Source: Candidatus Saccharimonadia bacterium
Lineage (GTDB): Bacteria; Patescibacteriota; Saccharimonadia; UBA4664
Reading direction: 5' to 3'
NCBI GenBank assembly: GCA_035544015.1
Contig: DATKIP010000113.1
Location: 1 to 61,490 of the forward strand
DNA length: 61,490 bases
Part shown: positions 1 through 59,766 of the stretch, piece by piece
How positions within the stretch are numbered: the stretch's first letter is position 1
Layout: every line of letters starts with the position of its first letter
Notes under the pieces: model-generated
The model's database searches: none
What the model was told of the DNA's origin: nothing
Seen by the model: only the letters and a program-made list of their open reading frames with translations
Program-made: the position numbers and the translations under genes

Positions 1-141
1 CGACTGAGAACGGCTGGTCGTTCAGTTGACCGTCAAGTCCCTGGAGCATGTCGAGGTCGGACAGGACGTTGGTGTACATTCGCCCCTGGACGATCACCGC
101 GTTGGCGCCGTTCGTGGCGTTGACAACGTCTTCCCAGTAAG
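1..141. repeat. Terminal direct repeat copy 1 (identical to 61350..61490, 141/141)
   Basis: The window starts cgactgagaacggctggtcg... and the same 141 nt end it. The repeat lies inside an open reading frame, so it is most simply the assembly overlap of a circular or circularly permuted genome. Confidence 0.9.
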
Positions 142-3599: not shown

Positions 3600-3671
3600 G
3601 ACGGCGTGCCAGAGTGGCTATGGCTCCGACTGCAAATCGGGTGTATGGCGGTTCGAGTCCGCCCGCCGTCT
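3600..3671 (+). tRNA. tRNA-Cys (anticodon GCA), plus strand, antisense to the surrounding structural operon
   Basis: Acceptor stem GACGGCG/CGCCGTC. Anticodon arm UCCGA-CUGCAAA-UCGGG. T arm GGCGG-TTCGAGT-CCGCC. Discriminator U73, the CysRS identity base. It fills the 94-nt gap between two minus-strand genes. Confidence 0.8.
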
Positions 3672-3675
3672 CCGG

Positions 3676-4289: not shown

Positions 4290-5156
4290 TCAGGCGGCCT
4301 GGAACCAAACGCCATGATCGTCGCGCATCGTCTTGACGCCGTAGAGCTGCTCCACGACGACCTTGTCAGCCAGGAAGTTGATGTCCAACCACTTGTGGGT
4401 GGTCGGCTCCATCTGCATCACGATCGTCATCGCCTCGGTGTTGGCCATCACGTTGTCGTGGCCGACCGTGTTGTCGCCCTCGACGTTCGTGGAGACGTAG
4501 ATCGGAATGCGGAACCACGACCCGATGTAGCCCATATCGTCGTCGTCGTCCACGCTGCCCTGGATCTTCGAGAAGTCGTTGGACATGAAGTGGTCGATCT
4601 GGACAAAGCCCTCTTCGGCCGCTGGCGAGAAGATCCCAAACCGCCCCTTGCGCGGGACGTTGGCATCGTTCAACTGGCGCCGCGCCTTGACGAACTGCTC
4701 GTAGGTCGGGAACGCGCCCATCACGCCGACCGTGTTGGTCGAGAGGTCGTCCACCAGCGCCGCGATGTCGTCGTCAGCCTGGAGCGCCAGCGCGTAGCCG
4801 AGCTCCGGCGCGTACAGCTCCATCTGGTCCTTGTAGGATTGCTTCGCGGTGGCGGTCTCGGTGGCCATCGCGGCGTAGCCCCAGGTGCCGATGGTGATGG
4901 CGGTGGTCGACTCGGTGTTGGTCTCGAACAAGACCGCCGTGTTGGCGGACATGTTCTTGGTCCGCGCGGTCAGGTGGGACACACCGGGGACATTGATGGT
5001 CGCCCCATACGGGGCGTCCTGCTCGTACTTGCGGGTGAACAACTTCGCGTAGCACAGCCGCTGCTCACGGGCCCGGATGACGTACTTGGACCACAATGCG
5101 GGGATGTAGACGGCTGCGGTGGTCGCGTCGATGAACTCTGTTGCGCCTGAGGCCAT
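4290..5156 (-). CDS. Major capsid protein, 288 aa
   Basis: It lies immediately downstream of the scaffold-like gene. The N-terminal arm AAVYIPALWSKYVIRAREQRL...YGATINVPG resembles the N-arm of P22-coat-type/HK97-fold capsid proteins. Confidence 0.75.
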   Translation of the reverse strand: MASGATEFIDATTAAVYIPALWSKYVIRAREQRLCYAKLFTRKYEQDAPYGATINVPGVSHLTARTKNMSANTAVLFETNTESTTAITIGTWGYAAMATETATAKQSYKDQMELYAPELGYALALQADDDIAALVDDLSTNTVGVMGAFPTYEQFVKARRQLNDANVPRKGRFGIFSPAAEEGFVQIDHFMSNDFSKIQGSVDDDDDMGYIGSWFRIPIYVSTNVEGDNTVGHDNVMANTEAMTIVMQMEPTTHKWLDINFLADKVVVEQLYGVKTMRDDHGVWFQAA

Positions 5157-5171
5157 GGTACGCCTTCCTTC

Positions 5172-6263
5172 CTACCCGGCACGCCGGCGCGGCGCCTGGA
5201 GCCCGCCGGGGATGCTCTGCAACACGCGGTCGATGGCGCCCGACTTGAACGCCTGCTCGAATGGCATGGCCGCCAGCTCCTCGGGCGTCGGCACGGTGGG
5301 GCGCGCGCCAGGCTGACCCGGACGGTCCACGGTGGCGGCATCGGCTGCGCGACGGTTGGCGGTCAAATTGCCGCGCTCGTTGACCAGCGAGTCGATCCGA
5401 TCGGCCTGCCGCTTGATCTCGGCGTCCTTCGCCTTGACCACTTCGGCATGCTCGGTGGTAAGCCGCTTCGTCACCCGATCGCGGACGGTGTCGCGGAGCG
5501 CTCGCATCTGGTCGTGCGGCTGGGTGTGCTGGGTGACGGCCGCCTGATCGACGTCGGGATCGGCCAGCACCCTGGATGACGTGATCTCGTGGTTCCAGAG
5601 ATCCACGATGCGCTGGACCTTGCGGTCCCCCATCACGTCCTCGAAGCGCCGGGCGGTCTTCCAGGCCGTCATCAGATTGGCGGCCTCGTCCTCGGTCAGG
5701 CCCGCAGATCCCTTGACCTCGGAGACCTTCTTGCCGTTTGGTAACACCACGTCGAGACCGTTGAGTGCCGATGAGTCACCCTGGAGGTGCTGCCAGACGG
5801 CCTGCTCGACCGCGCCGTAGTCGTCGTCCGACCCCACGTAGGCGGCGGTCTGGGCCTTGAACTGCTGCTCGTCCCGGATGCGGCGATCCGCTTCCTGCTG
5901 GACGCGCTGCTCGTCGGCGATCCTGGCGCGGGCACGATCCTCGGCGGCTCGTTCGATCTCGGCGGTGTCGGGCGTGGTAGGAGCCGGAGTGTCAGCCTTC
6001 AGCGCTTCAGCCTTAGGGACATCAGCTTTGGCCGGCGCCGGCTTCTCTTCGGTGGATGGCGGATCCGGGGCTGCGTCCTCGCCCATGAGTGTCTTCGGCG
6101 CCCGGCCTTCCATCTGGGCCAGCAGGTCGTCAATCTCGCTGTCGATCTGCTTCGTGAACGACTTGCTGTCGGTCTGGGTGGGCGTCGGATCAGTGTCGGG
6201 CGTCGCCGGGATAGTGGCGTCAGCCTCGACTACTGGTGCTGGAGTATTGGGCTCGTCTGCCAT
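5172..6263 (-). CDS. Scaffolding protein (by position and composition), about 363 aa
   Basis: Acidic, Ala/Glu/Arg-rich, predicted coiled-coil protein directly upstream of the capsid gene. ATG at 6263 (TTG at 6266 in the track). Confidence 0.6.
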   Translation of the reverse strand: MADEPNTPAPVVEADATIPATPDTDPTPTQTDSKSFTKQIDSEIDDLLAQMEGRAPKTLMGEDAAPDPPSTEEKPAPAKADVPKAEALKADTPAPTTPDTAEIERAAEDRARARIADEQRVQQEADRRIRDEQQFKAQTAAYVGSDDDYGAVEQAVWQHLQGDSSALNGLDVVLPNGKKVSEVKGSAGLTEDEAANLMTAWKTARRFEDVMGDRKVQRIVDLWNHEITSSRVLADPDVDQAAVTQHTQPHDQMRALRDTVRDRVTKRLTTEHAEVVKAKDAEIKRQADRIDSLVNERGNLTANRRAADAATVDRPGQPGARPTVPTPEELAAMPFEQAFKSGAIDRVLQSIPGGLQAPRRRAG

Positions 6264-6267
6264 CAAA

Positions 6268-6899: not shown

Positions 6900-7138
6900 A
6901 GATCGGTGTCCTTCAGCAACCCTTCATCGTGAAGCCTCTTGATCGCCCGGTGCTGGCCGTAGACCATACCGGCGAACATCCCCGCCATCATGAGCGATCG
7001 GTCATGCTCGTTCAGACCCTCCGGGATCGGGGGGCCGGCGTCCTCGAAGGACATCGGCGGCGGCTCCTGGTCCGGCGGGATGGCCGGACCATCCCTGAGC
7101 ATGCGAATGAGATGCTGCACATCGTCGCTTGCTGGCAT
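6896..7138 (-). CDS. Hypothetical protein, 80 aa
   Basis: Track ORF 6896..7159. The ATG at 7138 shares one base with the upstream TGA (TGATG). Confidence 0.55.
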   Translation of the reverse strand: MPASDDVQHLIRMLRDGPAIPPDQEPPPMSFEDAGPPIPEGLNEHDRSLMMAGMFAGMVYGQHRAIKRLHDEGLLKDTDL

Positions 7139-7311
7139 CACGCCGTCGTCTCCCCGCACCCGCCACCGCGTAGACGGCGAATCTCCGCAACGAGTGTGGC
7201 AACCTCACATGGCATCTGCTCGGCATCCACCTGACAGCGATCCTCCCACCCGGGCTCATCCAGAGGGCGATGCTGAGCCTCCATCTCACTCAGGCGCTCC
7301 TCTGAGATCAC
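7138..7311 (-). CDS. Hypothetical protein, 57 aa
   Basis: In frame with track ORF 7138..7362. The GTG at 7311 overlaps the glycosyltransferase stop (GTGA). The upstream part of the track ORF is Gly/Arg shadow sequence. Confidence 0.45.
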   Translation of the reverse strand: MISEERLSEMEAQHRPLDEPGWEDRCQVDAEQMPCEVATLVAEIRRLRGGGCGETTA

Positions 7312-9317
7312 GCCGCCGTCTCCCCGTCCACCACCGTCTCGGGCGCCACGTGCCGCACCCACATGCTCCAGGAGTCGCGATAGATCTGCTCCAATTCTCG
7401 CGTGTACGCCACCGGATCGCCCACCGTGCAGCCCGTGATCCGCGCCGGCAGTCCGGCCCGTAGCTCGGACAGGTCGCTCTGTGCCTTCTCCACCGCGATC
7501 GCGACGTATCGCTCAGGGGTATCTGCAATCCAGTCGGTCATCCCGAGCGACGTTAGGATAGACGCACTGACCCGAGATGGCGCGCGCGGACCGATCAACG
7601 TCACGCACGGCACGCCCATCATGGCAGCCTCAAGCGTGGTGATCCCGCCGACGTGAGGCCACGAGTCCAGCATGATGTCGATCTCACTGTACTGGCGGAT
7701 ATGCTCGTCGCGCGGGGTGTGACCCCGGGTCTCGACGCGATCGGGGCTGATGCCGTGCGCTGCGAACTTCGCCCGAAGCCGTTCGGCCGTCTCGCCCTCC
7801 AGGCCGCCGAACTTCAGCACGATCCGCGAGTCCGGTAGGCGCTTCATGACCTCGCACCAGAGGCCAAGGATCGGGTCGCTGATCTTCTCGACGCGGTTAT
7901 ACGACCCAAACGTCACGTAGCCGTTCTTCAGAACCGGCGGCGGCCCCGGAAGTGGGAGCTCCAGCATCGGATCAAACGTCAGTAGGCTGGACATCCTGAC
8001 GATCGTCTCGGTGTAGCCGTGCTCCAATTCGGGCGGCACGAACACATCGTCAGCCAGGAACAGGTCCATGCACTCCAGGCCGGTGCCGGTGGCGTAGCCC
8101 CAGGCGTGCACCTGAATCGGGGCCGGCTTGTGGCAGAACGTCAGCAGCCGTCCGCCGCTGGTGTAGGATGCGCAGTCCACCAGGATGTCGATCTGCCGGG
8201 CCCTGATCTCAGCGGCCAGCACGTCGTCGGGCATGCTGGCCGTCATCACCCACTCCTTGAGAGCGGGCGCTTCGCGAATCTTCGCCGAGATCTCGTCCTC
8301 GTACCTGTTACCGGCGAACACGTAGACCTCGATCTGCTCGGGGTCGTGGGCCCGGATCACCGGGCAGTGGATGTGACCGGCCGAATGCTGGCGGAAGTCG
8401 GCCCCGACGTAGCCGACCTTGAGCTTCCGCGTCAGACTGCGGTCGTTCTCGTGGGACCGCCACTGGCGCTTCAGCGGCTGCTCGAACACGTACGAGAAGT
8501 GCCGCCGGCGGCAGAGCGCCTCCAGCAGCGTCGTTTCGGGCAGCAGGTCCAGGAACATGACCATATTGCCGTAGAGCGCGGCGTTGGTCGGCACCAACTC
8601 CACGGCCCGCTGCGTGACGCCCATCGCCTCGTGGTTGCGGCCCATCAGGTTGTAGATCGCACCGAGGTTCGACCAGGCCATGTAATCCTGGCCTTGAGAC
8701 ACTTCGATGGCCCGCTGCTGCGAGCCGGCCGCCTCTTCCAGGTGCCAGTCGGCCCGGAGCGCCACGCCGTAGTTGATGAGCGCCATCGCGTTGGTGCCGT
8801 TCGACTGCCTGACCGCCTGCTCGCCGTAGGAGAGTGCCTTCTCATTGTCGCCCTGCGCCGAGTAGGCCGCGCACAAGTTGGCCATCGCGGCGTAGTTCTT
8901 ACCTGTCTCGACGGCCCGCTCGGCGGAGGCAATGGCTTCGTCCACGCGGCCCATCCGAGAGAGCGCGGCCGATCGGTTGTTGTGGGCATCGGACCAGGAG
9001 GGGCGCAGGCCGATGGCCACGTCGAAGTTCTGGACGGCCAGGTCCGGGCGGCCGACCTCCAGCATCACGCTGCCGCAGTGGAACTGGATCTCCGGATTGG
9101 TCGGCCAGAGCTTGACGGCCTGCTGGAGCACATTCGCTGCCATCGGGAAGGCCCGGAACTGCACCAGTGTGGCCGCCTGGTCCATCAGTTTGGCCGCTGC
9201 CTGCTGCTGGGAGTTGAGGACGGCCGCTTTCGGTTTCTGGGGCTGCTCCCAGAACTGCGGGGCCGGCTTCATCGCCCGATCCAGGATGGCGTCGAGAGAT
9301 CGACTCACCACGCCCAC
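7308..9317 (-). CDS. TPR-repeat + GT41 (O-GlcNAc transferase / SPINDLY-family) glycosyltransferase, 669 aa
   Basis: The N-terminal roughly 260 aa are TPR repeats (e.g. AVKLWPTNPEIQFHCGSVMLEVGRPDLAVQNFDVAIGLRPSWSDAHNNRSAAL). The C-terminal part matches the COG3914/GT41 pattern: KVGYVGADFRQHSAGH...IDILVDCASYTSGGRLLTFCHKPAPIQVHAWGYATGTG...VTFGSYNRVEKI...DIMLDSWPHVGGITTLEAAMMGVP. Confidence 0.85.
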   Translation of the reverse strand: MGVVSRSLDAILDRAMKPAPQFWEQPQKPKAAVLNSQQQAAAKLMDQAATLVQFRAFPMAANVLQQAVKLWPTNPEIQFHCGSVMLEVGRPDLAVQNFDVAIGLRPSWSDAHNNRSAALSRMGRVDEAIASAERAVETGKNYAAMANLCAAYSAQGDNEKALSYGEQAVRQSNGTNAMALINYGVALRADWHLEEAAGSQQRAIEVSQGQDYMAWSNLGAIYNLMGRNHEAMGVTQRAVELVPTNAALYGNMVMFLDLLPETTLLEALCRRRHFSYVFEQPLKRQWRSHENDRSLTRKLKVGYVGADFRQHSAGHIHCPVIRAHDPEQIEVYVFAGNRYEDEISAKIREAPALKEWVMTASMPDDVLAAEIRARQIDILVDCASYTSGGRLLTFCHKPAPIQVHAWGYATGTGLECMDLFLADDVFVPPELEHGYTETIVRMSSLLTFDPMLELPLPGPPPVLKNGYVTFGSYNRVEKISDPILGLWCEVMKRLPDSRIVLKFGGLEGETAERLRAKFAAHGISPDRVETRGHTPRDEHIRQYSEIDIMLDSWPHVGGITTLEAAMMGVPCVTLIGPRAPSRVSASILTSLGMTDWIADTPERYVAIAVEKAQSDLSELRAGLPARITGCTVGDPVAYTRELEQIYRDSWSMWVRHVAPETVVDGETAA

Positions 9318-9487
9318 TGCTCCAGTAGATCCTCGTGATCCATCTTCCGCATACTGGTGAGATACTGCTCCTGGCTCTTTCTCTCCCGCTCAAGTTGCTC
9401 CGTCATACCAAAGCCCCGCCAGAATCCTTCTCGGTAGATCGAATCCACGTAGCCCTTCCAGAGCATCTTGCGGTAGAGCTCTCTCAA
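9305..9487 (-). CDS. Hypothetical protein, 60 aa
   Basis: Track ORF. The TTG start overlaps the upstream stop (TTGA). Confidence 0.5.
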   Translation of the reverse strand: MRELYRKMLWKGYVDSIYREGFWRGFGMTEQLERERKSQEQYLTSMRKMDHEDLLEQWAW

Positions 9488-11469
9488 GCAACCCTCCGTC
9501 CGCGCTGAAGCAGCCCAGAGCCCGCGAGCGCCTGCGCGATCACATCACGCGGCGCCCCCATGCTGACCAGCCGCGCTGCTGCCTCGACAGGATCGAAGCC
9601 CCCGCCGGCAGCGCCGGCCAGCAATGAGTCCATCGGGCCGCCCTGGCCGGGTTGTGGGCTCGACGGCTGGTCACCGCCGACCGCCGATGACGCGAACGAC
9701 GACAGTGGCCCCTGCCCGAGCGGGGCCTTTTGCATGTCGCCCTGATCCTGCTGCGGGTACGGGTTCTGGCCCGGGATGATGTTGTACTTGTAGGGCTGAT
9801 ACTGTGACTGCTGGTAGTTCGGATCGGTAACGGTTGGGTCAGTAGGCACCTGGATCGGGAGCATGCCATCGGTCGGCAAGTCGCTCGGGATGGGGTTAGC
9901 TCCCGGCAGAATACCCCCACTGGGTGCCGGCGGCAGCGGCGCAGCGGGTTGCCACATCGGTGCCGTCCCTGGCGCCACTGGTGGCTGCCAGACGCTGCCG
10001 TCCTGTCCGGCCGGTCCCGCGTTCGCTGCTGCCTGCGCATTACTAGGTGGCGGCCCGGCCGGAGGTGTCGCCATCGCGGGGGCGGGCGCAGCAGCAACCG
10101 GCACGGCCGGTGCTGGCGGGGGTGCTGCATTCGGCGCGATGCTGCCGGGCACGGCGCCCAATCCGAGCGCGGGTGCTGGCGCTGGCGCGCCCGGCGGCTG
10201 GTACGGCTCGGGGGTCGGCCCGGTAGCCGCAGCCTGCTCCTTGGCTGCCGGTGGCTGGGCCGTGGCTGCACTCTGGGCGCTCGCGATCTGGAACATGGGA
10301 TGCAGGCCCGGGAGTTGCGGGGTCTTCGCCGTTCGCTCCTCGCGGTTCTTGTTCATCTCCCAGAGCAAGCCAGGGATGACGTTCTTCAGGCTGCCCGAGT
10401 CGGGGTCGAACCCGCCCTTGCTGGTTAGCGTCGAGAACGCCCCGAGCGCCGACGTGAAGTCTGATGCCGCCTCCTCGCTTCTGGTGTTGCGGAGCCCCGC
10501 CTCGTCCTGCTGGCGCTGACGAATGACCGTGTTGGCGTTCGCCACGTTCGTGATGGCCGTGCCAGCCCGCCCATGCGCTTCCTTGACAGCGTTGTCGTAG
10601 TCGTCCTGCGTGATGCCGCCCTGCTCGGCAGGGAGCCCGATCTTCTGACGCTGACGAGCGGCCCACGCGCCAACACCGACATCCAACCCTGGATCGTCAA
10701 AGTTGATCTCGAACGGGTCCACGTTCTTGAGCGTGACGCCGGGCTTCGGCACTTCGATCGTGACGAATGAGGGTGGCTGCTTCGGGTCGGCCGCGTTCGG
10801 CTGCCACACGCCCCACTGACCGTTGACCTGGACGGGCTTCGGAGCGGCGGCTCCTGGCGCGTTGGCAATCGGCGCCCAGACCGGCGGGTTCTTCGTCGTG
10901 TCGAAGTACCCCCACGAGCCGTCAGGAGCCTGCTGGGGCTTCGGGGCATTCTGGCGGGCCTGATCCTCACGAGCCCGTGTGTCGGCTTCATCCTGGCGCG
11001 ACCGCTGCCTGGCGGCCTCCGCATCGGAGCCCTGCTGCTTGATCCGCGCGTCTGCCCGCGTTCGGCGTTCGGCGTCGGTCTCGTAGGCCGGGTCTTGATT
11101 GGCCGGTAGCGCGGCGTTCTTCTCGCGCTGGCGCTGAAGCTCAGCGGCGTTCTTCTTCTCGGGAGTGTCGTCGGCTGGCCTGCCAGGGTTGGCATCACCC
11201 TGGTTCACGATGTCGAAATCACCGTCAGGGCGCCGGCGCACATTGAGCACTGCGCCAGTCGGCTTCCCCTCACCGTCAACGGCCGTCCACTTCTCTTCGC
11301 TGATCTCGATGGTGGCCGGTGCGGTCGGGTCGTAGTCGGGGTTGTCCGTGCCATCCGCTCGCGTGAGTTGCTTTGCTGGGTTCGCGACCTTCTGCGTGGA
11401 CCGGCTGTACTGGACCCGCTTGTCCCCACCCTGCTGGGCGATCCACTTCTCGACATCCTGCTGGTTCAC
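9484..11469 (-). CDS. Internal virion/ejection-type protein, 661 aa, with long Pro/Ala/Gln-rich low-complexity regions
   Basis: Track ORF with an ATGA-type overlap to the giant upstream gene. The function call rests on composition and position only. Confidence 0.7.
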   Translation of the reverse strand: MNQQDVEKWIAQQGGDKRVQYSRSTQKVANPAKQLTRADGTDNPDYDPTAPATIEISEEKWTAVDGEGKPTGAVLNVRRRPDGDFDIVNQGDANPGRPADDTPEKKNAAELQRQREKNAALPANQDPAYETDAERRTRADARIKQQGSDAEAARQRSRQDEADTRAREDQARQNAPKPQQAPDGSWGYFDTTKNPPVWAPIANAPGAAAPKPVQVNGQWGVWQPNAADPKQPPSFVTIEVPKPGVTLKNVDPFEINFDDPGLDVGVGAWAARQRQKIGLPAEQGGITQDDYDNAVKEAHGRAGTAITNVANANTVIRQRQQDEAGLRNTRSEEAASDFTSALGAFSTLTSKGGFDPDSGSLKNVIPGLLWEMNKNREERTAKTPQLPGLHPMFQIASAQSAATAQPPAAKEQAAATGPTPEPYQPPGAPAPAPALGLGAVPGSIAPNAAPPPAPAVPVAAAPAPAMATPPAGPPPSNAQAAANAGPAGQDGSVWQPPVAPGTAPMWQPAAPLPPAPSGGILPGANPIPSDLPTDGMLPIQVPTDPTVTDPNYQQSQYQPYKYNIIPGQNPYPQQDQGDMQKAPLGQGPLSSFASSAVGGDQPSSPQPGQGGPMDSLLAGAAGGGFDPVEAAARLVSMGAPRDVIAQALAGSGLLQRGRRVA

Positions 11470-14400
11470 GGTGCCCCCGATCTCAGCGTCTCACGCTGCT
11501 GCTGGCGTGCTTCAAGGACACGGCGGCGGATATCCCCCGCGCCGATCGACTGCATGAGCCGCTGGTCGGCCGCATCGTTGGCCTGGCGCAGCAGATCCTC
11601 CATTGCCACCTTCCGAGCTTCGGGATTCGACCAGAAGGTGCGGCTGGTCAGGTTACCGCTGAAGCGCTGGAGGATCTCGCCGCGATAGGTATTCCAGCGT
11701 CGCGTCTCGTCTGGTGTCAGATCCATCGGGATGGTGTCGACGGTCAGCTTCGTCTTCGGAAACCCGATGTCCACGCCAGCGTCAAGGAACGCCTTGACGG
11801 TCGGGTCGGGCTTCTCTGCCGACGTCCGCGCGAACACGGCCTTGACGCCCTGTTGTTGGTTCTCCTGGGGCCGCCCGAGCACGTCCTGCGCGATCGGCAG
11901 CCCGCCGCGTGCCCCGATGCCGCTCTGGACCTGCTGGCTGATAGTCGTCGAGGCTGGCGTGTTCTTCCCCGAGTCGACCGTCCGCTCGTTCGGGTCCAGG
12001 GCCGTGCCGATGGTCCGAGCAGTCGCGGCGTACGGAACCATGCGGGTGATCGTTGAGGATGCGTACCGCTCAGCGGCCGATCCCAGGCCGCCGCCATACC
12101 CGGCCTGGATTGTCTGCATGATGCTGGAGATGCCCTGGAGGTACGGCTGCTGCTGGAGCTGCTGGCCGAGGCGCCCGGCGTAGTTACTGGCAATGCTGGT
12201 CGGGCTCTTGTCCTTGCTGTAGGCGATCGAGTCGTGAACGTCAGCCGCCGCGTTCAGCAGTGGCGCGTAGATGCCCATCACGCGGTTCGGGACGTACACC
12301 CCATCGATCAGCGTCGAGTACGGACGCCAGCCCTGCGAGCGCATCTCCGCTTTCTTCTGCGGGTCGTCGGGGCCACCTCCCGTGATGACGCCGCTTGCGA
12401 CCGGCCCGGCCGCCAACCCGATCATGAGTGCCGACCCCAGCGTGGCATCGTACATCTTGTCGAACTTCGAGCCCTGGCTATTCATCGCGAAGCCGATCGG
12501 CGAGCGCTCGGCCAATCGGGTGTTCATGTTCCAGGGGGTGTTGAAGAACGGCGTCACGAGGTTCCCGACCACGGGCATGTTCCCGACCGTCGCGAAATTC
12601 CGCGCCTTCTTGCCGATGGTGCCGAGATCGTCCTGAAACGTCTGGCGCTTGGCGTAGGCCGCGCCCTCATCAATGACCGTTTGCGTGCCCGAGAGCGTCG
12701 GCAACTGACCCGCACGAACGTTCGCAGCGTCGGTCAGCAAGTCGTTGACGTGTTGCTTCCAGGCCGTGCCCTTCAGCCCGGCGTCCGTCGCCTGCTGCGC
12801 GGCTGCCCTGGCCTCGCCGGCTCCCTGGGCGATGGTCCCGAAGACGGCGTCAGGCAGCGCCGAGAAGACGCGCCCGCCGGCCTCCAGTCCTGTTGTGATG
12901 GCCTTGCCGATCGGATTCTGCGTCTGGGCCGAGAGCGGCTCATGCCCCGGCGTCGGCGCGTACTTGCCACTCGCGGTCAGCGCATCCACCATCGCCGAGC
13001 CGACCTGAGAGAGCCCGTGGAATGCACCAGCAGCCATCTCGCCCGGCTCCCGCAGCGCCGAGGCGTTCCCGGTGCTGATCGCCCTGGCAACGCCGCGTGT
13101 GGTCTCCTTCGGGATGGCGTAGAGCGGTTCCGCCACGTTGCCCGTCAGGTTCACGGTAAACGTCGCCGGGCCAATCATCGACGAGTACCCGGATTCGGCA
13201 AAGAGCTTGCGCACCCATTGGAGCGGAGAAAGTCCGGGCGACGCCTGCCGCTGCGCTCGCTGGACGGCGCGCTGCACGGCGTTCGGGTTGAAGCCACCGG
13301 CACCCGGCGCCTGCCCAAACATCGCCAGCAGGCCACTATCCGCGCCGGCCGTGCCCCCCTGTCTCGCTGCAATCGCCCGCATGCCCTTCGTGATGGCGTA
13401 CGGCGCGACGGCCCCCACCGCAAAGCCCTTGACGCCCGCGTACGGGTCGTCTGGGTTCATCTCCTGGTTGACGGCCGCGCCGACCCCGCCCGAGACGGAC
13501 GACGCCACCCCCTGCCCGAGCACGCGGTTCACGGCAGACAGGCGGTCGGGAGCGGCGGATGGGGGGAGGGTGCCGGCTGTCACCGACGCGGTTTGAGAAC
13601 CCGGCGCGTAGCGAACAGCATTCCCCATCTCGTTGGTTGTGTAGGCTAGTGTCCTCTCGATGCGATCCACTGGAATCGGCTTCGGGGTCTTGATGTACCC
13701 GTCGTGGTCAAGGCGCCAACCGTCTTGCGGGTCCACGCGGATTCGGACAGCCACAGCCTCGCCGTTCTTCGGATTGTAGAACGGCGACGGCTCAAATGTA
13801 CTCGCGACAGTGCCCTCACGGGCGTCGAGGTTCAGGCGTCCGTCCGACTGAAGGAAGCCGCGACGGAGTGAGCCCTCGTAGTCCTCGCGAGAAATCACTC
13901 GATAGACAGCATCGAGCGGTTGGCGAGTGCCCGGGATCTCCTCAGCGTTCCCGAAGAAATTCGGACGGTACTGCGCCATCTCGGGGCCATTCGGGCCTTC
14001 CGTCACGCGCCACTCAGCCGCCCGCGCTCTCGTTACCTGCCGACCTGTGGAGTCCGTATATGGCTCAGTGATCGGCTCCTCGCGCGGGCGCACGCCCAGA
14101 TCCTCAGTGAGCCGGCTTTCCCAGATATCACGCGGTGTTCTCGGCGCCTCATCCGGCACCACCCCGAACCCGGCATTGAGTCGGCTACTGGTGTCCACCT
14201 GTGGCGTGATCTCAGGGCCGATGCCGGCCGCTCGCAGATCGGGATGCACAGCCTCGCGCGGCATCCTGGAGTCGCGGATCATCTCAGCAGACGCCTCACC
14301 GAGGGCGCCCTGCTCGAAATCGCCTATCCGTCCCTTGATGGGCGGGTACGGGCGTCCGAACTCCTCCGGGATCTGCCCGAGTACCCCAGGAGCCACCGTC

Positions 14401-16553
14401 GAGCCTTCAGCAGCCATCCTGGCGTCAGCAGCAGCCACGTTCTCGGCGTTGCGGGCCATCCACTGCCCGAAGCGCTCGGCCGGCACACCATCCTTGATCG
14501 CCTGAAGAATAGGCCCGCCCAGTCGTCCGCCAACCTTGATCGCGCCATAGCCCAGCCGCGCGGCGTCGCGAACGAGCGCGGCTGTCATGATGGCGTCGCC
14601 CAACCCGACCTCGCCCACAATGGGGAAGTTGCCTTTCGGCACCATCTCGTTCAACTGCCGGGCTAGCGTGGTGGACGGCGCCAGGTCGCCGACGACCCCG
14701 AGCGCACCCATCGCCGCCTCGCCGTAGTTGCCCTCGGCAACTCCTGACTGTGCGGCGCCAATGTTCCGGCCGAGCGAGCGCCCGGTCTCCACAATAGCGC
14801 GGTCGATGGTGGTCTCAGGCTGGCCCGAGTCCGGCAGTGGCGGCTTGCCGAGTAGTGGGCGCGTCACGGCGTTGGCGATGCCCCGGCCGATCGGGGTTGC
14901 GATACCCTCGGTGGCGACGGTGTTGCCGATATCCTGCACGGCGCCCTGGACATACCCGACAATGGCGCCGCCAGCGTCGTAGAGCGGCTTGAACGGGCTC
15001 TTGGGTTGTGCTGGCTGCTCCGGCCCGGCCTGCTCGAGCGGAGGCCCGTATGTCGGGCGTACGTCATTTGACGTACTCGGTGGCGTGTATGGAACCTGGG
15101 GCTCGTCGCGGGCGTCGCCGTAGGTGGACGGTACATCCGGCGGTACACTTACGGACCTCTGGGGGTACGCCTGAGGGGTCACCGGCGTACCGGCCGGCGG
15201 TACATCAGACGGTACGGCTTCCCACCGTCCGCTATCAGCGTCCCTCGGATCGTACTCCGCGCCGGTCGCCGTGTCCGGCCCCATCGTCGCGGCGAGCGGC
15301 TGGCGCTGCATATCCCCCATGTACCACGCGGACGAGCCCGGGGGTGGCCCGGTCTCCCCGTTGGCCGGGTCATAGGGCACATCGTTGCGCAGTGGCGGGG
15401 GAACAGGCTCGTTTGGGTCAGAGAGCCGCTGGACGTAGCGCTCGGAGTCGCTGGCATCCTCCGGCATCGGATGGGCGTCACCGAGCGCCATGCGTAGCGA
15501 GTCGCCCTGGGCGCTCTCCTGCGGCGTCGAGAGCACGGTCAGATCAGCCGCGCCGCCCGGCCGCTTCCTGAACGCCTCCGGGGTCATCGTGAACGTGTTA
15601 CCCCACTGGTCACGGACGGTGTACAGGCCAGAGGAGCCCCCGGCTGCCGGGGGAGTACCAGCAGCCGGGGGCGCAGGTGGGGCAGCCGGCGCAGGGTTCG
15701 CGGCCCCAGCGCCGGCGTTCGGAGATGCGCCGCCGTACTTCGAGGCGGCCTGACGGAAGAGTCGGACGTACTCGTGACCGTCCACCGATGAGCCGTCAGT
15801 GGCGCTGGTGACATTGCCCTGGCCGTCGATCGCCCCAAAGTACGCTGCTGCTGCCTTATCGGGGTCGCCGTACCGCCGCAGGGCGTCGCCGTAGACCTTG
15901 GCCCCCCGGAAGATGTTGGTACGCGGGTCTTTCGGGTTCTCGCCGGGCTTGAAGTGGAACGGCATCACCTGCATCAGCGACTGCGCACCGGCCGACGACA
16001 CGGCCTCGGGATCGCCGCCCGACTCGATCTCCATCAGCCCCTTGATCGCCCACTCGGGGACGTTCTCGGCGCGCGCCGCCTCAGCGACGATGGACGACCA
16101 GCGCTCGACATCGGGGCTGCCTGTGCCGCTTGACGGGGCATAAGAGGAAGGGGTTAGCGCAGCCGAGGGCGTTGGCAATCCGTTGGCGTTGGCGTTGGCG
16201 TTTTCACCAACGGGTGTTGGTGTTGGGCCAACGGGCTGCTTCGGAGCACTAACCCCCAGGCTCTCCAGGCTCGGGAGCGCCCACGATGGCGCGGTGTCGG
16301 CCACGGCCTGACGGGCGCGCTGAGGAACGCTGCCGAGCGCCGACATGACGGACGACGGTGCACCCGTGACGCCCAGACTTTCGAGGCTCGGAAGCTGCCA
16401 GGACGGCTGTTCGGGCTCAGGCTGGGGATCTGGCGTCGGGTTGATGGCCTGCGCGTACCGCTGCGTCACGTCGTCGACCAGCGACACCGTGCGCGCCCCG
16501 GCGGCAGCGGCATCGTTCTGGTTGAGCGTGCGGCGCGGCAGATAGAGCGGCAT
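11466..16553 (-). CDS. Giant internal virion protein with an SLT lytic transglycosylase domain, 1695 aa
   Basis: Track ORF 11466..16661. I prefer the ATG at 16553 (MPLYLPRRTL), one nt after the upstream stop. SLT signature WAIKGLMEIESGGDPEAVSSAGAQSLMQVMPFHF lies about 200 aa from the N-terminus. Confidence 0.85.
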   Translation of the reverse strand: MPLYLPRRTLNQNDAAAAGARTVSLVDDVTQRYAQAINPTPDPQPEPEQPSWQLPSLESLGVTGAPSSVMSALGSVPQRARQAVADTAPSWALPSLESLGVSAPKQPVGPTPTPVGENANANANGLPTPSAALTPSSYAPSSGTGSPDVERWSSIVAEAARAENVPEWAIKGLMEIESGGDPEAVSSAGAQSLMQVMPFHFKPGENPKDPRTNIFRGAKVYGDALRRYGDPDKAAAAYFGAIDGQGNVTSATDGSSVDGHEYVRLFRQAASKYGGASPNAGAGAANPAPAAPPAPPAAGTPPAAGGSSGLYTVRDQWGNTFTMTPEAFRKRPGGAADLTVLSTPQESAQGDSLRMALGDAHPMPEDASDSERYVQRLSDPNEPVPPPLRNDVPYDPANGETGPPPGSSAWYMGDMQRQPLAATMGPDTATGAEYDPRDADSGRWEAVPSDVPPAGTPVTPQAYPQRSVSVPPDVPSTYGDARDEPQVPYTPPSTSNDVRPTYGPPLEQAGPEQPAQPKSPFKPLYDAGGAIVGYVQGAVQDIGNTVATEGIATPIGRGIANAVTRPLLGKPPLPDSGQPETTIDRAIVETGRSLGRNIGAAQSGVAEGNYGEAAMGALGVVGDLAPSTTLARQLNEMVPKGNFPIVGEVGLGDAIMTAALVRDAARLGYGAIKVGGRLGGPILQAIKDGVPAERFGQWMARNAENVAAADARMAAEGSTVAPGVLGQIPEEFGRPYPPIKGRIGDFEQGALGEASAEMIRDSRMPREAVHPDLRAAGIGPEITPQVDTSSRLNAGFGVVPDEAPRTPRDIWESRLTEDLGVRPREEPITEPYTDSTGRQVTRARAAEWRVTEGPNGPEMAQYRPNFFGNAEEIPGTRQPLDAVYRVISREDYEGSLRRGFLQSDGRLNLDAREGTVASTFEPSPFYNPKNGEAVAVRIRVDPQDGWRLDHDGYIKTPKPIPVDRIERTLAYTTNEMGNAVRYAPGSQTASVTAGTLPPSAAPDRLSAVNRVLGQGVASSVSGGVGAAVNQEMNPDDPYAGVKGFAVGAVAPYAITKGMRAIAARQGGTAGADSGLLAMFGQAPGAGGFNPNAVQRAVQRAQRQASPGLSPLQWVRKLFAESGYSSMIGPATFTVNLTGNVAEPLYAIPKETTRGVARAISTGNASALREPGEMAAGAFHGLSQVGSAMVDALTASGKYAPTPGHEPLSAQTQNPIGKAITTGLEAGGRVFSALPDAVFGTIAQGAGEARAAAQQATDAGLKGTAWKQHVNDLLTDAANVRAGQLPTLSGTQTVIDEGAAYAKRQTFQDDLGTIGKKARNFATVGNMPVVGNLVTPFFNTPWNMNTRLAERSPIGFAMNSQGSKFDKMYDATLGSALMIGLAAGPVASGVITGGGPDDPQKKAEMRSQGWRPYSTLIDGVYVPNRVMGIYAPLLNAAADVHDSIAYSKDKSPTSIASNYAGRLGQQLQQQPYLQGISSIMQTIQAGYGGGLGSAAERYASSTITRMVPYAATARTIGTALDPNERTVDSGKNTPASTTISQQVQSGIGARGGLPIAQDVLGRPQENQQQGVKAVFARTSAEKPDPTVKAFLDAGVDIGFPKTKLTVDTIPMDLTPDETRRWNTYRGEILQRFSGNLTSRTFWSNPEARKVAMEDLLRQANDAADQRLMQSIGAGDIRRRVLEARQQQRETLRSGAP

Positions 16554-16554
16554 G

Positions 16555-16722
16555 TCAGAACCCCAGGCGTCCCTTCGGTCGCGGCAGCACCTGATGTTCG
16601 CGATAGTCGCCGGCGCCATCGGGCACCAGGATGAACGGCGCGGCGTCGGGCTCACGCTCATTCACGCCATGCGCCGAGCCGCTCATGCGATCGTCAACCC
16701 AGAAGTCCTCATCCCAGGCCAC
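16555..16722 (-). CDS. Small protein, 55 aa
   Basis: Last 55 codons of track ORF 16555..17541. GTG at 16722 downstream of AAGGAG. Sequence (M)AWDEDFWVDDRMSGSAHGVNEREPDAAPFILVPDGAGDYREHQVLPRPKGRLGF with high GC3. The rest of the track ORF overlaps the SDR gene out of frame. Confidence 0.5.
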   Translation of the reverse strand: MAWDEDFWVDDRMSGSAHGVNEREPDAAPFILVPDGAGDYREHQVLPRPKGRLGF

Positions 16723-17525: not shown

Positions 17526-17719
17526 GCTGCCCCCTGAGCACCTAACCACCCGAATAGGCAACAAAACGGCGAGGCGATTGCCATACCAATAGCGGACCAT
17601 GTGGCGAACTGCACGGCGTCAGCGACTGGCAGTAAGAGCACGGTGAGGCCGAAGACGCTACCAAACATGACCACGACGCCAATCACTGAAGCGACTAAAC
17701 ACCACATCAGAATCGTCAT
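17522..17719 (-). CDS. Small membrane protein, 65 aa, 2 predicted TM segments
   Basis: MTILMWCLVASVIGVVVMFGSVFGLTVLLLPV... The ATG at 17719 forms an ATGA overlap with the upstream stop. In frame with track ORF 17522..17887. Confidence 0.55.
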   Translation of the reverse strand: MTILMWCLVASVIGVVVMFGSVFGLTVLLLPVADAVQFATWSAIGMAIASPFCCLFGWLGAQGAA

Positions 17720-46908: not shown

Positions 46909-46928
46909 CGGACGGACAGGATACGCGG

Positions 46929-47013: not shown

Positions 47014-47016
47014 GAG

Positions 47017-47088: not shown

Positions 47089-47089
47089 C

Positions 47090-47348: not shown

Positions 47349-47349
47349 G

Positions 47350-56217: not shown

Positions 56218-57546
56218 CTATGCCGGTAGTCCCCAGACAGTGAGGCGGCTCGTGGTTGTCCAGAAACCGGCCGAAAGTGTCACGCGAACCAGCGTGATGG
56301 CAGCCGTGGATTCCCAGACTCCGACCGTCATGAGCGCCTGAATGGATCCGGAGGCCAGGTTGAATGACCCGTCGCACATCGCGATCACGTTTTTCCATGC
56401 TGAGGTGCCTGCGTAGCCGGGCAAATGGATACTGAACGACCCGATCAGATTGGTCGTACTGGTAGCAGCCGGCATGGAGCCAAGAGCGATGTAGTCGACC
56501 GCTCCAATGCTCTCGTCAGCGGTCGGGACCGTCGCGGATCCATAGACCCGCTGGTAGTCGTACGCACCGACTGTCGGGCTGGTCTCAAATGTCAGGCGCG
56601 TGCCCACACCAGCGGACGTGTCTGTCGATCGTCCACCGTCCAATTCTAGATACAATGAGCGGTACGCCCCGGAGATGCCGGAGAGCGCCAGGACAGCGGA
56701 CGACCCAGTGCCCACAACCTCCCCTAACTTATCGAGCGAGTTGGATGCTCCCACCGACTCGAACCCGGCGCCGGTAGCGTTGGATCGAAAATACTGCCCC
56801 GACGTTGTGGGAAAGACCGCGATTGGCGTGTTGGCGGCCGTCGCCGTGATAACCCCACCAGTCGCTGAGAGAAGTGACTGGGGCGAGGCGAGCCAGGTTG
56901 GCGCCGTGGCCCCCGCATTCATCCCGAGCACGAACCGGGCAGTACCGGGGGCCAGTCCCGTCACGCTGTTAGCCCCGGTCGCGAAGAATGTGTAGCCGGC
57001 CGTGACCGCCGCCGCTAACACACCTGATGCCCACGTCTGGCCAGTGGCGCCGGCATTCATCACGAATTCCTGGAAGGCCGTCCCCTTCGGGATGTGGGCC
57101 GGTGTGTTGGCGGCCGACGCCCCCACCAGTGAGCCCGCCGATGCCAGCAAGGACTGGAGCGATGCACTCCAGGACGGCACGCCACTTGACGAGACGATCA
57201 TGCTCTGGAACGTCGACCCGATGTTCAAGAGCGCGCTCGCGGTCCCGCCCGCGCCGTACAGCGTCTGGCCGGTCGCCGTGAACAAACTGAGCCCGGTCGC
57301 GACCACCGGGACACCGAGCGTCACGCCGGTCTTGTTGAATAGCGCGATGGTCGACGTGCCCGAGACCACTTTGAGGGCGTTGCCGGCTGAGGTCTCCTCA
57401 TTGGTGATCGTGACCGTGTACTCGGTGGCGTGGGTGGTGGTGAAGGTGGCCGACTGGTCCTTCGTGGCAGCCGTCACCCAGCGTGTGAATTGAGTGACAT
57501 GGGTGGATCGGATCGGCTGGCCTGCGGCTACCGAGACGAGAGGCAT
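56218..57546 (-). CDS. Tail fibre / receptor-binding protein, 442 aa, with an internal duplication
   Basis: Ser/Thr/Ala/Gly-rich. Duplicated segments FVMNAGATGQTWAS...PSWSASLQSLLASAGSLVGASAANTPAHIP and FVLGMNAGATAPTWLASPQSLLSATGGVITATAANTPIAVFP. Confidence 0.65.
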   Translation of the reverse strand: MPLVSVAAGQPIRSTHVTQFTRWVTAATKDQSATFTTTHATEYTVTITNEETSAGNALKVVSGTSTIALFNKTGVTLGVPVVATGLSLFTATGQTLYGAGGTASALLNIGSTFQSMIVSSSGVPSWSASLQSLLASAGSLVGASAANTPAHIPKGTAFQEFVMNAGATGQTWASGVLAAAVTAGYTFFATGANSVTGLAPGTARFVLGMNAGATAPTWLASPQSLLSATGGVITATAANTPIAVFPTTSGQYFRSNATGAGFESVGASNSLDKLGEVVGTGSSAVLALSGISGAYRSLYLELDGGRSTDTSAGVGTRLTFETSPTVGAYDYQRVYGSATVPTADESIGAVDYIALGSMPAATSTTNLIGSFSIHLPGYAGTSAWKNVIAMCDGSFNLASGSIQALMTVGVWESTAAITLVRVTLSAGFWTTTSRLTVWGLPA

Positions 57547-57734
57547 CAGCCGCTCCCTTCCTGCTCAAGCGGCGCGTGCAACTCGTCCGCACACGCCACG
57601 AGCTGCTGTCGGAGCGCCGCAACCTCAGCGTCGCGCTCGGCCAGTCGGATCTCGTAGACCAACAACTGCGCCGACACTGCGCCGTAGCGCGCGGCCAGCG
57701 CGTCCCATTCCCGTTGCCCGATCTCGATGCTCAT
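57546..57734 (-). CDS. Coiled-coil mini-protein, 62 aa (fibre assembly/chaperone-like by position)
   Basis: Track ORF that overlaps its neighbours at both ends. Confidence 0.5.
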   Translation of the reverse strand: MSIEIGQREWDALAARYGAVSAQLLVYEIRLAERDAEVAALRQQLVACADELHAPLEQEGSG

Positions 57735-58561
57735 GGGAATTTGCTGCCGCCGCCAATCGTTGCCACGTTGACCAGGAGGTTGGCGGTCCCGACATCAGTA
57801 ACCGCCTCGACGCAGCCGTAGCGGCCACTTCCGGTCGGCAGCATCATCTCGACGCCCGGCCTACCCGACGTCAGACTGGCGTAACTGGTGGAGCGGTTCA
57901 TGGCCAGCACCTGGTCAAGCGTGGTCGACGCATCCAGCGCGGCTGACACTGTCAACTTGACCCAGTACAGGCTTTCACCCGAGTACGGGATGGCGTTGAC
58001 GGCGCCGGTGATCGTCCTGAGGGTGCCGACCGTCCAGTCGGTGGGGACGGTCCATGTGATGCCACCATCGACGTTGAAGGTGGCAACCCCAGAGAACGTG
58101 CCGTCTGCGCTGGTCAGGGTGGCCATCGTCGGGCCGGTTGCCGACCAGTACGCCGTGACGGCGGTCGACGTGTTGGAGTTGGTCGCCTGCACGTCGGCGA
58201 ACACGCCACGGAACGGGAGCTCGGCGCCGACCCAGAGGGCGCCGGTGGTGGCGAGCGACGACAGCACGACCGCGCCGTTGGTCGCCTTGTTGTTCTGCGC
58301 GACCGCCGAGTAGTCGGTGACCCCGGTCGCCGTCGCGAAGTTGTCCGTGGTCTTCAGGACGCGGAGCCACGGGTTGAGGGCGTACGAGATCACGGCGGCG
58401 GTGCCGGCGTAGTTCCGCCCCTCCATGTACAGGTACTGCGAGCCCGGGGGGAACGCCTGGAACGCTGCTGCGGCCGTGGCTCCTGCCGTGATCGCATTCC
58501 CCACGGCGGCGGATGCACGGCGCCACTCCCCGAAGGGGCCATTCAGATTAGGCATGCTCAT
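57731..58561 (-). CDS. Tail/fibre-module structural protein, 276 aa
   Basis: Track ORF with beta-rich Thr/Ala/Gly composition. Confidence 0.65.
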   Translation of the reverse strand: MSMPNLNGPFGEWRRASAAVGNAITAGATAAAAFQAFPPGSQYLYMEGRNYAGTAAVISYALNPWLRVLKTTDNFATATGVTDYSAVAQNNKATNGAVVLSSLATTGALWVGAELPFRGVFADVQATNSNTSTAVTAYWSATGPTMATLTSADGTFSGVATFNVDGGITWTVPTDWTVGTLRTITGAVNAIPYSGESLYWVKLTVSAALDASTTLDQVLAMNRSTSYASLTSGRPGVEMMLPTGSGRYGCVEAVTDVGTANLLVNVATIGGGSKFP

Positions 58562-58742
58562 CGGTATCGGCTCCTTCAGGGGGGATCACGTCGCCCGAGA
58601 CGGCTGGCGGCTCGGGCGAGGGCTGCTGGTTCGCTGTGGCGATCTGGTGGCCCAGCGTGCTTGCCATCGTGGAAAGGGCGACCACCATCTCGGCGTTCGT
58701 TCGCGAGAGGCCGGCGTTCGTCAGGATGTCGATCTCGTTCAT
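58548..58742 (-). CDS. Hypothetical protein, 64 aa
   Basis: In frame with track ORF 58548..58772. The ATG at 58742 lies one nt after the fibre stop. Confidence 0.5.
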   Translation of the reverse strand: MNEIDILTNAGLSRTNAEMVVALSTMASTLGHQIATANQQPSPEPPAVSGDVIPPEGADTDEHA

Positions 58743-58743
58743 G

Positions 58744-59766
58744 TCATCTCCAAGCCGAGTAGCGGTACACATCGTTCGTCTGATTGGAGATCGCCGTGAT
58801 GCCGGCGCCGCCTTCGACCTGAAATCCAGTCGACACGAGAACAGTCGAATCGAGCACTACCAGGAAGGTGAGCGCGGTTACGCCGCTGAGGCGGGCAAAC
58901 CCGATGTTGTCGCTCCCGTTGCCGCTCAACAGGTGACATGTCGCTCGCGTGCCAGACGACGATCCGACGCTAGCGATGTACACATACTTAGGCTGGAAGC
59001 CCAGGGTGATCGTGCGCGTCGTGCTGCCGTTGCCGGTGTAGTTTCCGGTGACCACGAAGTCGTCAGCGTGCAGTCCGTCTACCATGTCGGCGTTGAAGCT
59101 CGTGGCGACGCCCGTTGAATTGGCAACGAACGGGGCGCCGGCGATGGCTGTCGAAGTGAACGTGTTCGCTATCGCCGAGCTCAAGAACGTGGCGACGCCG
59201 CTGACGTTAAGGGTGGACGCCATTGTCACGATGCCGCTGAACGTGGCCGTCGCCGCGACCACCAGGCCTGAGGACATCGTCACTGCGCCCACAACGGTCA
59301 CCGCCCCCGTCACCCGCAGTGTCCCGACCGTGGCCGCGCCCACCACGTTGAGGCTGCCCCCGAGCGAGGCCGCGCCGGTCGTCACGGTGAATCCATTGGC
59401 GACCGTGGCCGACCCGCCCATGACCACGGGTCCAGTTGTGACGGTCACCCCGCTTGCTACCGTCAGTGTGTTGACAGCGAGTAGTCCGGTGAACACGCCG
59501 GTCCCGGTGTGCGTGAACGCCCCGCCGAATGCCACGCCGGTCCCGTCAATGCGCCCGAAGTTGGTCCCGGCGATGGCGCGGAACGACAGCGCGCCGATGC
59601 CGCTGTTCTGAAGGTCCAGACCGTAGCGGTCATCGTCATTGATGCCCGTGGCGGTGGCTGCCGGCGCGCTGTTCCCGCCCAAAAACCACATCACGAGTGG
59701 ATCGACCTGATCGTAGCCTGCTTTGGCCGTGGTATCCGCGAGGGGCAATGGGCGGACAGTCGCCAT
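58744..59766 (-). CDS. Tail fibre protein, 340 aa
   Basis: A run of short beta-helix-like repeats (GVTVTTGPVVMGGSATVANGFTVTTGAASLGGSLNVVGAATVGTLRVTGAVTVVGAVTM...) is followed by FNADMVDGLHADDF, a motif common in phage fibres. RBS GGGAGG. Confidence 0.75.
   Translation of the reverse strand: MATVRPLPLADTTAKAGYDQVDPLVMWFLGGNSAPAATATGINDDDRYGLDLQNSGIGALSFRAIAGTNFGRIDGTGVAFGGAFTHTGTGVFTGLLAVNTLTVASGVTVTTGPVVMGGSATVANGFTVTTGAASLGGSLNVVGAATVGTLRVTGAVTVVGAVTMSSGLVVAATATFSGIVTMASTLNVSGVATFLSSAIANTFTSTAIAGAPFVANSTGVATSFNADMVDGLHADDFVVTGNYTGNGSTTRTITLGFQPKYVYIASVGSSSGTRATCHLLSGNGSDNIGFARLSGVTALTFLVVLDSTVLVSTGFQVEGGAGITAISNQTNDVYRYSAWR

Follow-up and report, generated by a model that had tools for sequence, protein, structure and literature searches.

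A SPINDLY-like TPR-GT41 glycosyltransferase gene in the virion module of an uncultured phage

Glycosyltransferases of family GT41, among them O-GlcNAc transferase (OGT) and SPINDLY (SPY), are central regulators in eukaryotes, and their bacterial relatives largely lack known substrates. What would such an enzyme do among the structural genes of a phage? The question is raised by contig DATKIP010000113.1 of assembly GCA_035544015.1 (the whole stretch of 61,490 bp, about 65% GC, is called the window below), which holds a phage genome and, at 7308..9317 on the minus strand, a gene for a protein joining N-terminal tetratricopeptide repeats (TPRs) to a GT41 catalytic domain. By its sequence and fold matches, the protein is a canonical though divergent GT41 member of the bacterial SPINDLY-like subfamily. 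We lean, with moderate confidence, towards its being an O-glycosyltransferase that is expressed late and acts on virion proteins. The novelty lies in the setting: the gene is a conserved part of a phage virion module and represents one of several phage GT41 lineages in structural modules.

Family, fold and active site of the protein

The maximal open reading frame (ORF) of the glycosyltransferase (GT) gene encodes 669 amino acids from a GTG start and contains the three GT41-pattern motifs quoted in a first-pass annotation of the window: KVGYVGADFRQHSAGH at residues 300–315 of the translation, IDILVD...GYATGTG at residues 376–413 and DIMLDSWPHVGGITTLEAAMMGVP at residues 547–570. That annotation had assigned the protein to the OGT/SPINDLY family, and Pfam, sequence and fold searches all agreed. 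The Pfam model PF13844 (Glyco_transf_41) matched with E=2.9e-41 and 141.8 bits against a gathering cutoff of 25, more than 10 Pfam TPR models matched the N-terminal 250 residues, and phmmer gave E values of 1e-27 to 1e-66 against every solved GT41 structure type. The best match among PDB sequences was Arabidopsis SPINDLY (E=4.4e-66, query residues 106–659), followed by human OGT (~1e-61), the Thermobaculum "OGT" of entry 5DJS (TtOGT; 3e-60) and Xanthomonas XcOGT (6e-27); for the catalytic half alone, the closest PDB sequence was 5DJS (4e-56).

An AlphaFold2 model built on a 33-sequence alignment (mean pLDDT 91.9, pTM 0.86) consists of seven hairpins followed by two Rossmann-like lobes. In a Foldseek search against the PDB, the top 50 matches were all GT41 structures (best E=8e-40), with TM scores of 0.81/0.86 to SPY in complex with GDP-fucose (8dti_A) and 0.71/0.91 to TtOGT (5djs_A). 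The TPR domain spans residues 36–283 (8469..9212, minus strand), where the 14 modeled helices form seven hairpins, the first and the last of them degenerate, in keeping with the earlier count of about seven repeats. In OGT, a ladder of Asn residues binds extended substrate peptides. The ladder of the phage protein (N114, N147, N182, N217 and N251) was invariant in 20 aligned sequences of its clade, the close relatives described below, but this is weak evidence, as Asn at these positions also belongs to the general TPR consensus. The GT-B catalytic domain of GT41, delimited by a residue map against SPY, covers residues 299–657 (7347..8423, minus strand).

Among the solved enzymes, Arabidopsis SPINDLY (7Y4I, 8DTF–8DTI) is the best full-length match by both sequence and fold, and in both proteins the TPR array is fused directly to the GT-B domain without an intervening domain. 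The phage protein differs from SPY in its sequence (about 25% identity), in its seven TPR hairpins, fewer than in full-length SPY, and in being encoded in a phage virion operon. TtOGT and XcOGT (2VSN, 2JLB) resemble it as compact bacterial enzymes with a short TPR array and a GT-B domain, 5DJS being the closest solved catalytic domain, but they are chromosomal, not viral. The idea that TtOGT natively lacks the catalytic Lys was rejected, PDB 5DJS being an engineered K341M mutant. Human and Drosophila OGT offer a likeness in the GT41 fold, in the catalytic residues listed below and in the threading of substrate through the TPR lumen; the phage protein, however, lacks the metazoan intervening domain, as the alignment to human OGT (hOGT) splits into residues 25–180 and 205–397 of the catalytic query fragment and leaves about 140 OGT residues unmatched.

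In SPY, K665 and H495 are required for activity, and mutation of S496 strongly reduces it (PMC9715652). We transferred the SPY residue functions reported there to the phage protein and to its homologs, 19 from the clade and 13 more distant. The essential catalytic Lys is K478 (SPY K665, hOGT K842), H311/S312 correspond to SPY H495/S496 (H311 also to hOGT H558), N474 to SPY N661, the base-stacking H539 to SPY H728 and hOGT H901, and E563 to SPY E752 and hOGT D925. Also mapped in the catalytic domain were D307, D551, H555 and the loop G557-G558-I559-T560-T561. The catalytic Lys and His residues, which the first-pass annotation had singled out for checking, are intact (K478, H311 and H539), and these three were invariant in the 19 aligned clade relatives together with S312, N474, D551 and E563. 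Among the nucleotide and phosphate contacts (N661, H728 and T747–T749 in SPY; H901, T921 and T922 in hOGT), N474, H539 and T560 are conserved, and SPY T747 and T748 are replaced by Gly and Ile, respectively. Judged by its catalytic residues, the enzyme is apparently catalytically competent.

The choice of donor is another matter. SPY Y744 (hOGT C917) is proposed to size the sugar pocket and hence to govern donor choice; it excludes GlcNAc and is needed for fucose transfer, and the mutants Y744A and Y744C lose activity (PMC9715652). In place of the Tyr of SPY, the protein of the window and 19/19 aligned clade relatives carry His (H555); the more distant homologs have His, Gln or Ser, and TtOGT and XcOGT, unlike the phage protein, have Tyr. 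The phosphate loop reads G-G-I-T-T, as opposed to T-T-T-T in SPY and H-T-T-G in OGT, a variant common to the homologs, and hOGT H920 is replaced by Gly. The donor chemistry implied by the earlier comparison with OGT and SPINDLY did not hold up: because H555 is neither the Tyr of SPY nor the Cys of OGT, neither O-fucose nor O-GlcNAc can be assumed, the use of UDP-GlcNAc included, and the donor sugar is not predictable. On these residues, the protein is not to be filed as an O-fucosyltransferase (POFUT) or as an O-GlcNAc transferase.

Gene order and inheritance in the virion module

The first-pass annotation had described the gene as lying between the internal/ejection proteins and the scaffold and capsid genes and as translationally coupled within a late structural operon, and the window confirmed both. 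Upstream, all on the minus strand, are the genes for a 1731-aa internal virion (ejection) protein with a lytic transglycosylase domain (11466..16661; phrog_6651 2.5e-20, phrog_342 1.8e-12) and for a Pro/Ala/Gln-rich 661-aa protein of the internal-protein module (9484..11469), a candidate acceptor or partner of the enzyme. Downstream, on the same strand, follow a putative scaffolding protein of 364 aa (5172..6266), so named by position and size in the absence of a family match, and the 288-aa major capsid protein (4290..5156; phrog_267 2e-26), whose homologs bear PF25209/PF19821 and the name "N4-gp56 family major capsid protein." GTGA start/stop overlaps join the GT gene to its neighbors on both sides: between it and the 661-aa gene, a 60-aa ORF (9305..9487, minus strand) ends in a TGA that overlaps a GT start codon (9308–9305), and a 57-aa ORF (7138..7311, minus strand) begins with a GTG that overlaps the GT stop (7311–7308). 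The true GT start is probably the GTG at 9311 or 9308, as a GGAG lies 8–11 nt upstream at 9323–9320, and the protein would then have 666–667 aa.

A homolog search covering 5.8 billion proteins returned about 30 clade proteins of 580–690 aa with 53–84% identity, after which identity falls sharply to about 36%, in proteins labeled as bacterial or "SPINDLY family." The first-pass annotation had raised the possibility that related phages share the insertion point, and they do so in 4/4 checked clade relatives, with GT identities of 84% (22 kb), 71% (62 kb), 65% (40 kb) and 53% (16 kb). The conserved order is an SLT internal protein, a ~600-aa protein, an optional small ORF, the GT41 gene, small ORFs, a scaffold-sized gene and the 288-aa capsid gene. 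The 661-aa protein, found upstream of the GT throughout the clade, is 57–68% identical to its counterparts in the related loci L001 and L003 (tblastn), the putative scaffold is 51–60% identical in L001–L003, and homologs of the 1731-aa protein lie upstream of the GT in L001, L002, L003 and the more distant locus L060 described below. In comparison with L003, the ratio of nonsynonymous to synonymous substitution rates (dN/dS) was 0.16 overall, 0.12 in the TPR domain and 0.18 in the catalytic domain; the GT gene is under purifying selection.

The small flanking ORFs behave differently from the GT gene. Those between the ~600-aa gene and the GT share 13–25% identity among relatives in an alignment, which ruled them out as conserved partners, and L003 has a 56-aa ORF with a 4-nt overlap in place of the 57-aa ORF of the window. 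By eye, the latter resembles a 72-aa ORF upstream of the GT in L001 (9750–9968), with the motifs EERL.E.EAQ and VAE.RRLR common to both, and these resemblances suggest a small mobile ORF family around the GT. L001 also carries a LAGLIDADG homing-endonuclease gene (14485–15159, minus strand) just downstream of the capsid gene and on the opposite strand to it; the window has no such gene. The giant internal protein of L001 (951–7874) combines SLT with ddrB-ParB, and that of L008 (1173–5537) NlpC/P60 with LPD38, accessory domains that recall the "polyvalent proteins" which enter the cell along with phage DNA.

More distant relatives, found by a capsid-protein search and having 42–51% capsid identity, keep the giant internal protein, a 570–760-aa protein, the scaffold and the capsid gene. 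Since they are without GT41, the GT is an accessory gene; its sequence distribution points to acquisition by, and then fixation in, one sub-lineage of uncultured ~61-kb phages.

GT41 genes in other phages and the remainder of the genome

Among GenBank phages, neither the full protein (E≤1e-5) nor the catalytic domain (E≤1) had a tblastn match, and a megablast search with 20 kb of the window was likewise negative. PHROGs has no family for the catalytic domain, BFVD gave no full-length structural match (best TMq 0.38), and the GTDB species-representative genomes contained no close relative or prophage copy, the only hit being a 23% TPR-only match in Telmatobacter. Literature searches turned up no phage GT41 or TPR-fused enzyme.

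Single-protein searches of IMG/VR with the GT and with the capsid protein returned no matches; an alignment-based scan of the same database identified 79 loci with GT41 genes at 23–41% identity. For these loci, we called ORFs, clustered the neighboring proteins and annotated representatives, and three contexts emerged. Context A is the single locus L060, where a 1572-aa SLT protein (31% identical to the C-terminal third of the internal protein of the window), a 576-aa protein (whose N-terminal ~100 aa match the 661-aa protein, BLASTP E=3e-12) and the TPR-GT41 gene are followed by a capsid gene of the GP7-like family, unrelated to the capsid of the window. In context B, comprising 19 loci, GT41 lies in an HK97-type head module in the order TerL, Phage_portal, Peptidase_S78 prohead protease, GT41 and Phage_capsid. 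The portal proteins here are often 800–920 aa long (e.g., L066, 5394–7193) in comparison with the 321-position Pfam portal domain, and the low-complexity C-terminal extensions of the long ones could be acceptor regions.

In context C, GT41 lies close downstream of a giant repeat protein of 500–1850 aa with 24–33% Ser+Thr; strictly counted, this applies to 7 loci, and by cluster membership to as many as 15. The giant ORF runs 10–22 nt beyond the start of the maximal GT41 ORF in L024, L026, L038, L054 and L055. These IMG/VR loci with GT41 after a giant Ser/Thr-rich protein resemble the HMW1C/NGT systems, where a GT41 enzyme is encoded beside the large repetitive protein that it modifies, the HMW1 adhesin. 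HMW1C, however, has no TPRs and N-glycosylates Asn, and the protein of the window reaches just 19.5 bits against a cutoff of 1000 with the NCBIfam NGT model NF049992, over its last ~90 residues only.

The catalytic Lys, His and Asp residues are retained in every phage GT41 group, K478 being invariant in 74/74 IMG/VR phage GT41 sequences, and the donor-determinant position is His in contexts A and C and Gln or Ile in B. In a rough, distance-based neighbor-joining tree, used only to separate the clade of the window from the large IMG/VR clade, one clade of 50 sequences, all from IMG/VR, unites contexts B and C with 24 unclassified loci, and the window clade is placed elsewhere. By sequence comparison, there are several phage GT41 lineages, all of them in structural modules and all metagenome-only.

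Two further features of the IMG/VR loci were noted. In 9–10 of them, GT41 has within a few kilobases a gene for a radical-SAM/SPASM enzyme and one for a ~190-aa protein similar to the pyrimidine-binding subunit of a transketolase; genes of one or the other kind occur in L038 (12684–13808), L057 (10660–11247), L020, L024, L026, L032, L052, L062 and L066, and their products might supply or tailor the sugar or the acceptor. Two contigs carry two GT41 genes each, L020 and L028 on a 46.9-kb and L029 and L057 on a 79.2-kb contig.

As to the remainder of the window, an exact 141-bp direct repeat at its two ends (1–141 and 61350–61490) identifies the contig as a circularly assembled, complete phage genome of ~61.35 kb (61,349 bp). 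Family scans recognized the phage marker genes for a large terminase (24659–26122), internal virion protein, major head protein, an endolysin with a GH19 domain, primase and RecT, and a PAPS-reductase-like gene; the nearest terminases have ≤38% identity and come from phages of unrelated hosts. A 678-aa ORF spans the circular junction (60345–61349 joined to 1–1030, minus strand), the 367-aa ORF at 60343–61446 being merely its C-terminal part; at 90% identity to a 679-aa protein of L003 (13648–15684) and 64% to that of L001, it is probably a tail or fiber component. Six tRNAs were predicted, five in a minus-strand cluster (Ser, Cys, Leu, Leu, Ser; 46927–47433) and a lone plus-strand tRNA-Cys (3600–3673) between two minus-strand structural genes, which may be a second copy or a false positive. 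The PAPS-reductase-like gene (42385–43344, minus strand; phrog_424 E=7e-45) lies in the replication/early region and might belong to a DNA- or nucleotide-modification pathway.

Virion proteins as proposed acceptors and the rival explanations

GT41 enzymes are soluble and modify proteins in the cytoplasm, where phage particles also assemble. Activity, timing of expression, acceptor and benefit are what we infer in the reading of the gene as a virion-protein glycosyltransferase. A soluble GT41 enzyme would be synthesized along with the internal (ejection), scaffold and capsid proteins; in the cytoplasm of the infected cell, its seven-hairpin TPR superhelix would guide a stretch of extended chain from a phage structural protein to the catalytic center, in the manner of OGT and SPY. 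There, a nucleotide sugar supplied by the host and held in position by K478, H311 and S312 would donate its sugar to Ser/Thr. The outcome would be glycosylated virions. The likeliest acceptors would be the 1731-aa and 661-aa internal proteins, the capsid and scaffold proteins, or the Ser/Thr-rich fibers, and these candidates cannot be ranked with confidence.

An enzyme that modifies virion proteins as they are made would be expected to show what is seen here: coupling in a late operon, joint inheritance of the GT and both upstream internal proteins even where the capsid family changes, and related genes lying between prohead protease and capsid and directly after Ser/Thr-rich giants. The conserved gene order, and the recurrence of GT41 in head modules and beside such giants, make this reading more likely. 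The closest functional analog of the proposed role is found in mycobacteriophages. Virion protein glycosylation is known from few cases, mainly from these phages, where it affects immune recognition; as summarized in PMC12619734 and PMC10877033, their phage-encoded glycosyltransferases modify capsid and tail-tube subunits (Freeman 2023). The likeness lies in a glycosyltransferase gene associated with virion structural genes; the difference is that the literature yielded no phage enzyme of the GT41 or TPR-fused kind and that GenBank phage records have no detectable GT41 domain. The first-pass annotation had contrasted the two as GT41 against "GT-A/GT-B" enzymes, a wording that fails because GT41 itself has a GT-B fold; the contrast lies in the family and in the fused TPR selector. 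Caulobacter FlmG divides the work between a TPR domain, to which flagellin binds, and a sugar-transferring GT-B domain (PMC7591256). The phage protein can be likened to it by architecture alone, with an N-terminal TPR that would bind the substrate and a C-terminal GT-B domain that would act in the cytoplasm before assembly and export of a large multimer, but FlmG uses pseudaminic acid and targets flagellin, and no sugar-biosynthesis island was recognized in the phage.

The neighbors had been described as unusually rich in acceptor sequence, and this was true in part. Three fiber-like proteins of 442, 276 and 340 aa, encoded at 56218..59766 on the minus strand in the late transcription direction and candidate acceptors by composition only, contain 21–26% Ser+Thr, and the 661-aa protein is indeed rich in Pro, Ala and Gln; the corresponding Ser+Thr contents are 13.3% for the 1731-aa protein and 13.9% for the capsid. 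The fibers, for which no family matches were found, resemble the giant proteins of context C in composition, but we found no homology between the two.

Several observations weigh against virion glycosylation. The 661-aa protein adjacent to the GT contains just 9.8% Ser+Thr. By annotation and tblastn, GT41 is absent from the more distant relatives, so virions assemble without the gene, and the position beside the ejection proteins would be just as natural for a packaged effector. T748, a Thr of the phosphate loop that is important in SPY, is replaced by Ile or Val (I559 here), a variant that cellular relatives share. No nucleotide-sugar biosynthesis gene was recognized in the window, and Pfam searches of ten more ORFs brought up nothing of relevance. 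Next to the internal virion protein gene, on its upstream side and still within the structural module, lies a short-chain dehydrogenase/reductase gene (16740–17600, minus strand; adh_short E=5e-36, phrog_3142 "FabG-like"). It was rejected as a sugar-nucleotide enzyme firmly linked to the GT: it is of the classical adh_short/FabG-like type, and a 47%-identical copy occurs upstream in L002 but is absent from the matching stretch of L001.

The strongest rival is an effector that would O-glycosylate host factors and so take over or protect the infection, either as a passenger of the capsid that leaves it with the internal proteins and the DNA or simply by acting on host proteins during infection; the packaged ADP-ribosyltransferase Alt of T4 provides the analogy. 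The gene sits within the internal/ejection block and travels with it even beside a different capsid family, the giants upstream of it in relatives carry the polyvalent-protein-type domains named above for L001 and L008, the eukaryotic GT41 enzymes regulate many cytoplasmic proteins, and the TPR domain is highly conserved (dN/dS 0.12). The protein has no capsid-targeting signal, however; in 7–15 other phages, the GT41 gene comes directly after a Ser/Thr-rich giant, an arrangement that speaks for an acceptor encoded by the phage, and in 19 loci it lies between prohead protease and capsid gene, an interval that, to our knowledge, is not a recognized position for ejected effectors. On balance, we hold an effector role to be unlikely. 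Still less do we expect the full form of the idea to be correct, in which TPR-GT41 proteins are a widespread, unrecognized class of the phage morphogenesis/ejection module and the enzyme of this lineage is packaged, codelivered with the DNA and O-glycosylates host proteins at the start of infection, as the first injected protein-glycosyltransferase effector of a phage.

It is improbable that the enzyme glycosylates a flagellin, pilin or adhesin of the host, a change that could shut out superinfecting phages or modify the receptor. In favor of it, flagellin glycosylation islands of bacteria contain COG3914/GT41 genes (PMC4875605), FlmG pairs a TPR with a GT-B domain in the same way and uses the former to bind flagellins (PMC7591256), and the closest homologs outside the clade, at about 36% identity, are bacterial or "SPINDLY family" by their labels. 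Translational coupling in a late structural operon, however, is not a moron or lysogeny position; no integrase was recognized among the scanned ORFs, which cover about half of the genome, nor a prophage copy among the GTDB species representatives, and the recurrent head-module contexts are hard to explain in this way.

Conservation of the TPR domain equals or exceeds that of the catalytic domain, the equivalent of SPY T748 is Ile, and the bacterial TtOGT shows no O-GlcNAc transferase activity in vitro (PMC9715652), all of which would suit an assembly chaperone whose TPR array acts as a scaffold for head or internal proteins and whose enzyme domain is vestigial and no longer transfers sugar. 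Yet the tested catalytic and nucleotide-binding residues are invariant in the clade, the catalytic dN/dS is 0.18, and Ile or Val at the T748 position also occurs in cellular relatives, and we consider such a loss of function very doubtful. The least probable acceptor is a nonprotein one, phage DNA or a cell-envelope glycan: most characterized phage GT-B enzymes do modify DNA or host polysaccharide (PMC12619734), and DNA alpha-glucosyltransferases are among the BFVD structures matched by the catalytic half, but these reach a TMq of only ~0.3, the GT41 activities listed in PMC4875605 and PMC9715652 are all peptide-directed, a fused TPR superhelix with an invariant Asn ladder is a protein-binding device, and no hydroxymethylase or other hypermodification gene was recognized in the window, where many ORFs are unannotated.

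At least three unrelated capsid families are represented among the phages that carry GT41 genes in structural modules. No GT41 gene was detected among GenBank phages, yet their recurrence in uncultured phages suggests an unstudied way of glycosylating virion proteins. If this is true, virion glycosylation would be much broader than culture collections imply and would be carried out by a self-contained enzyme that unites selector and transferase; this would bear on how stable phages are, how they interact with receptors, how they are recognized by the immune system in therapy, and on glyco-engineering. Phage systems would also offer a tractable route to the substrates and donors of the bacterial SPINDLY-like GT41 enzymes, the likely acceptors being encoded a few genes away.

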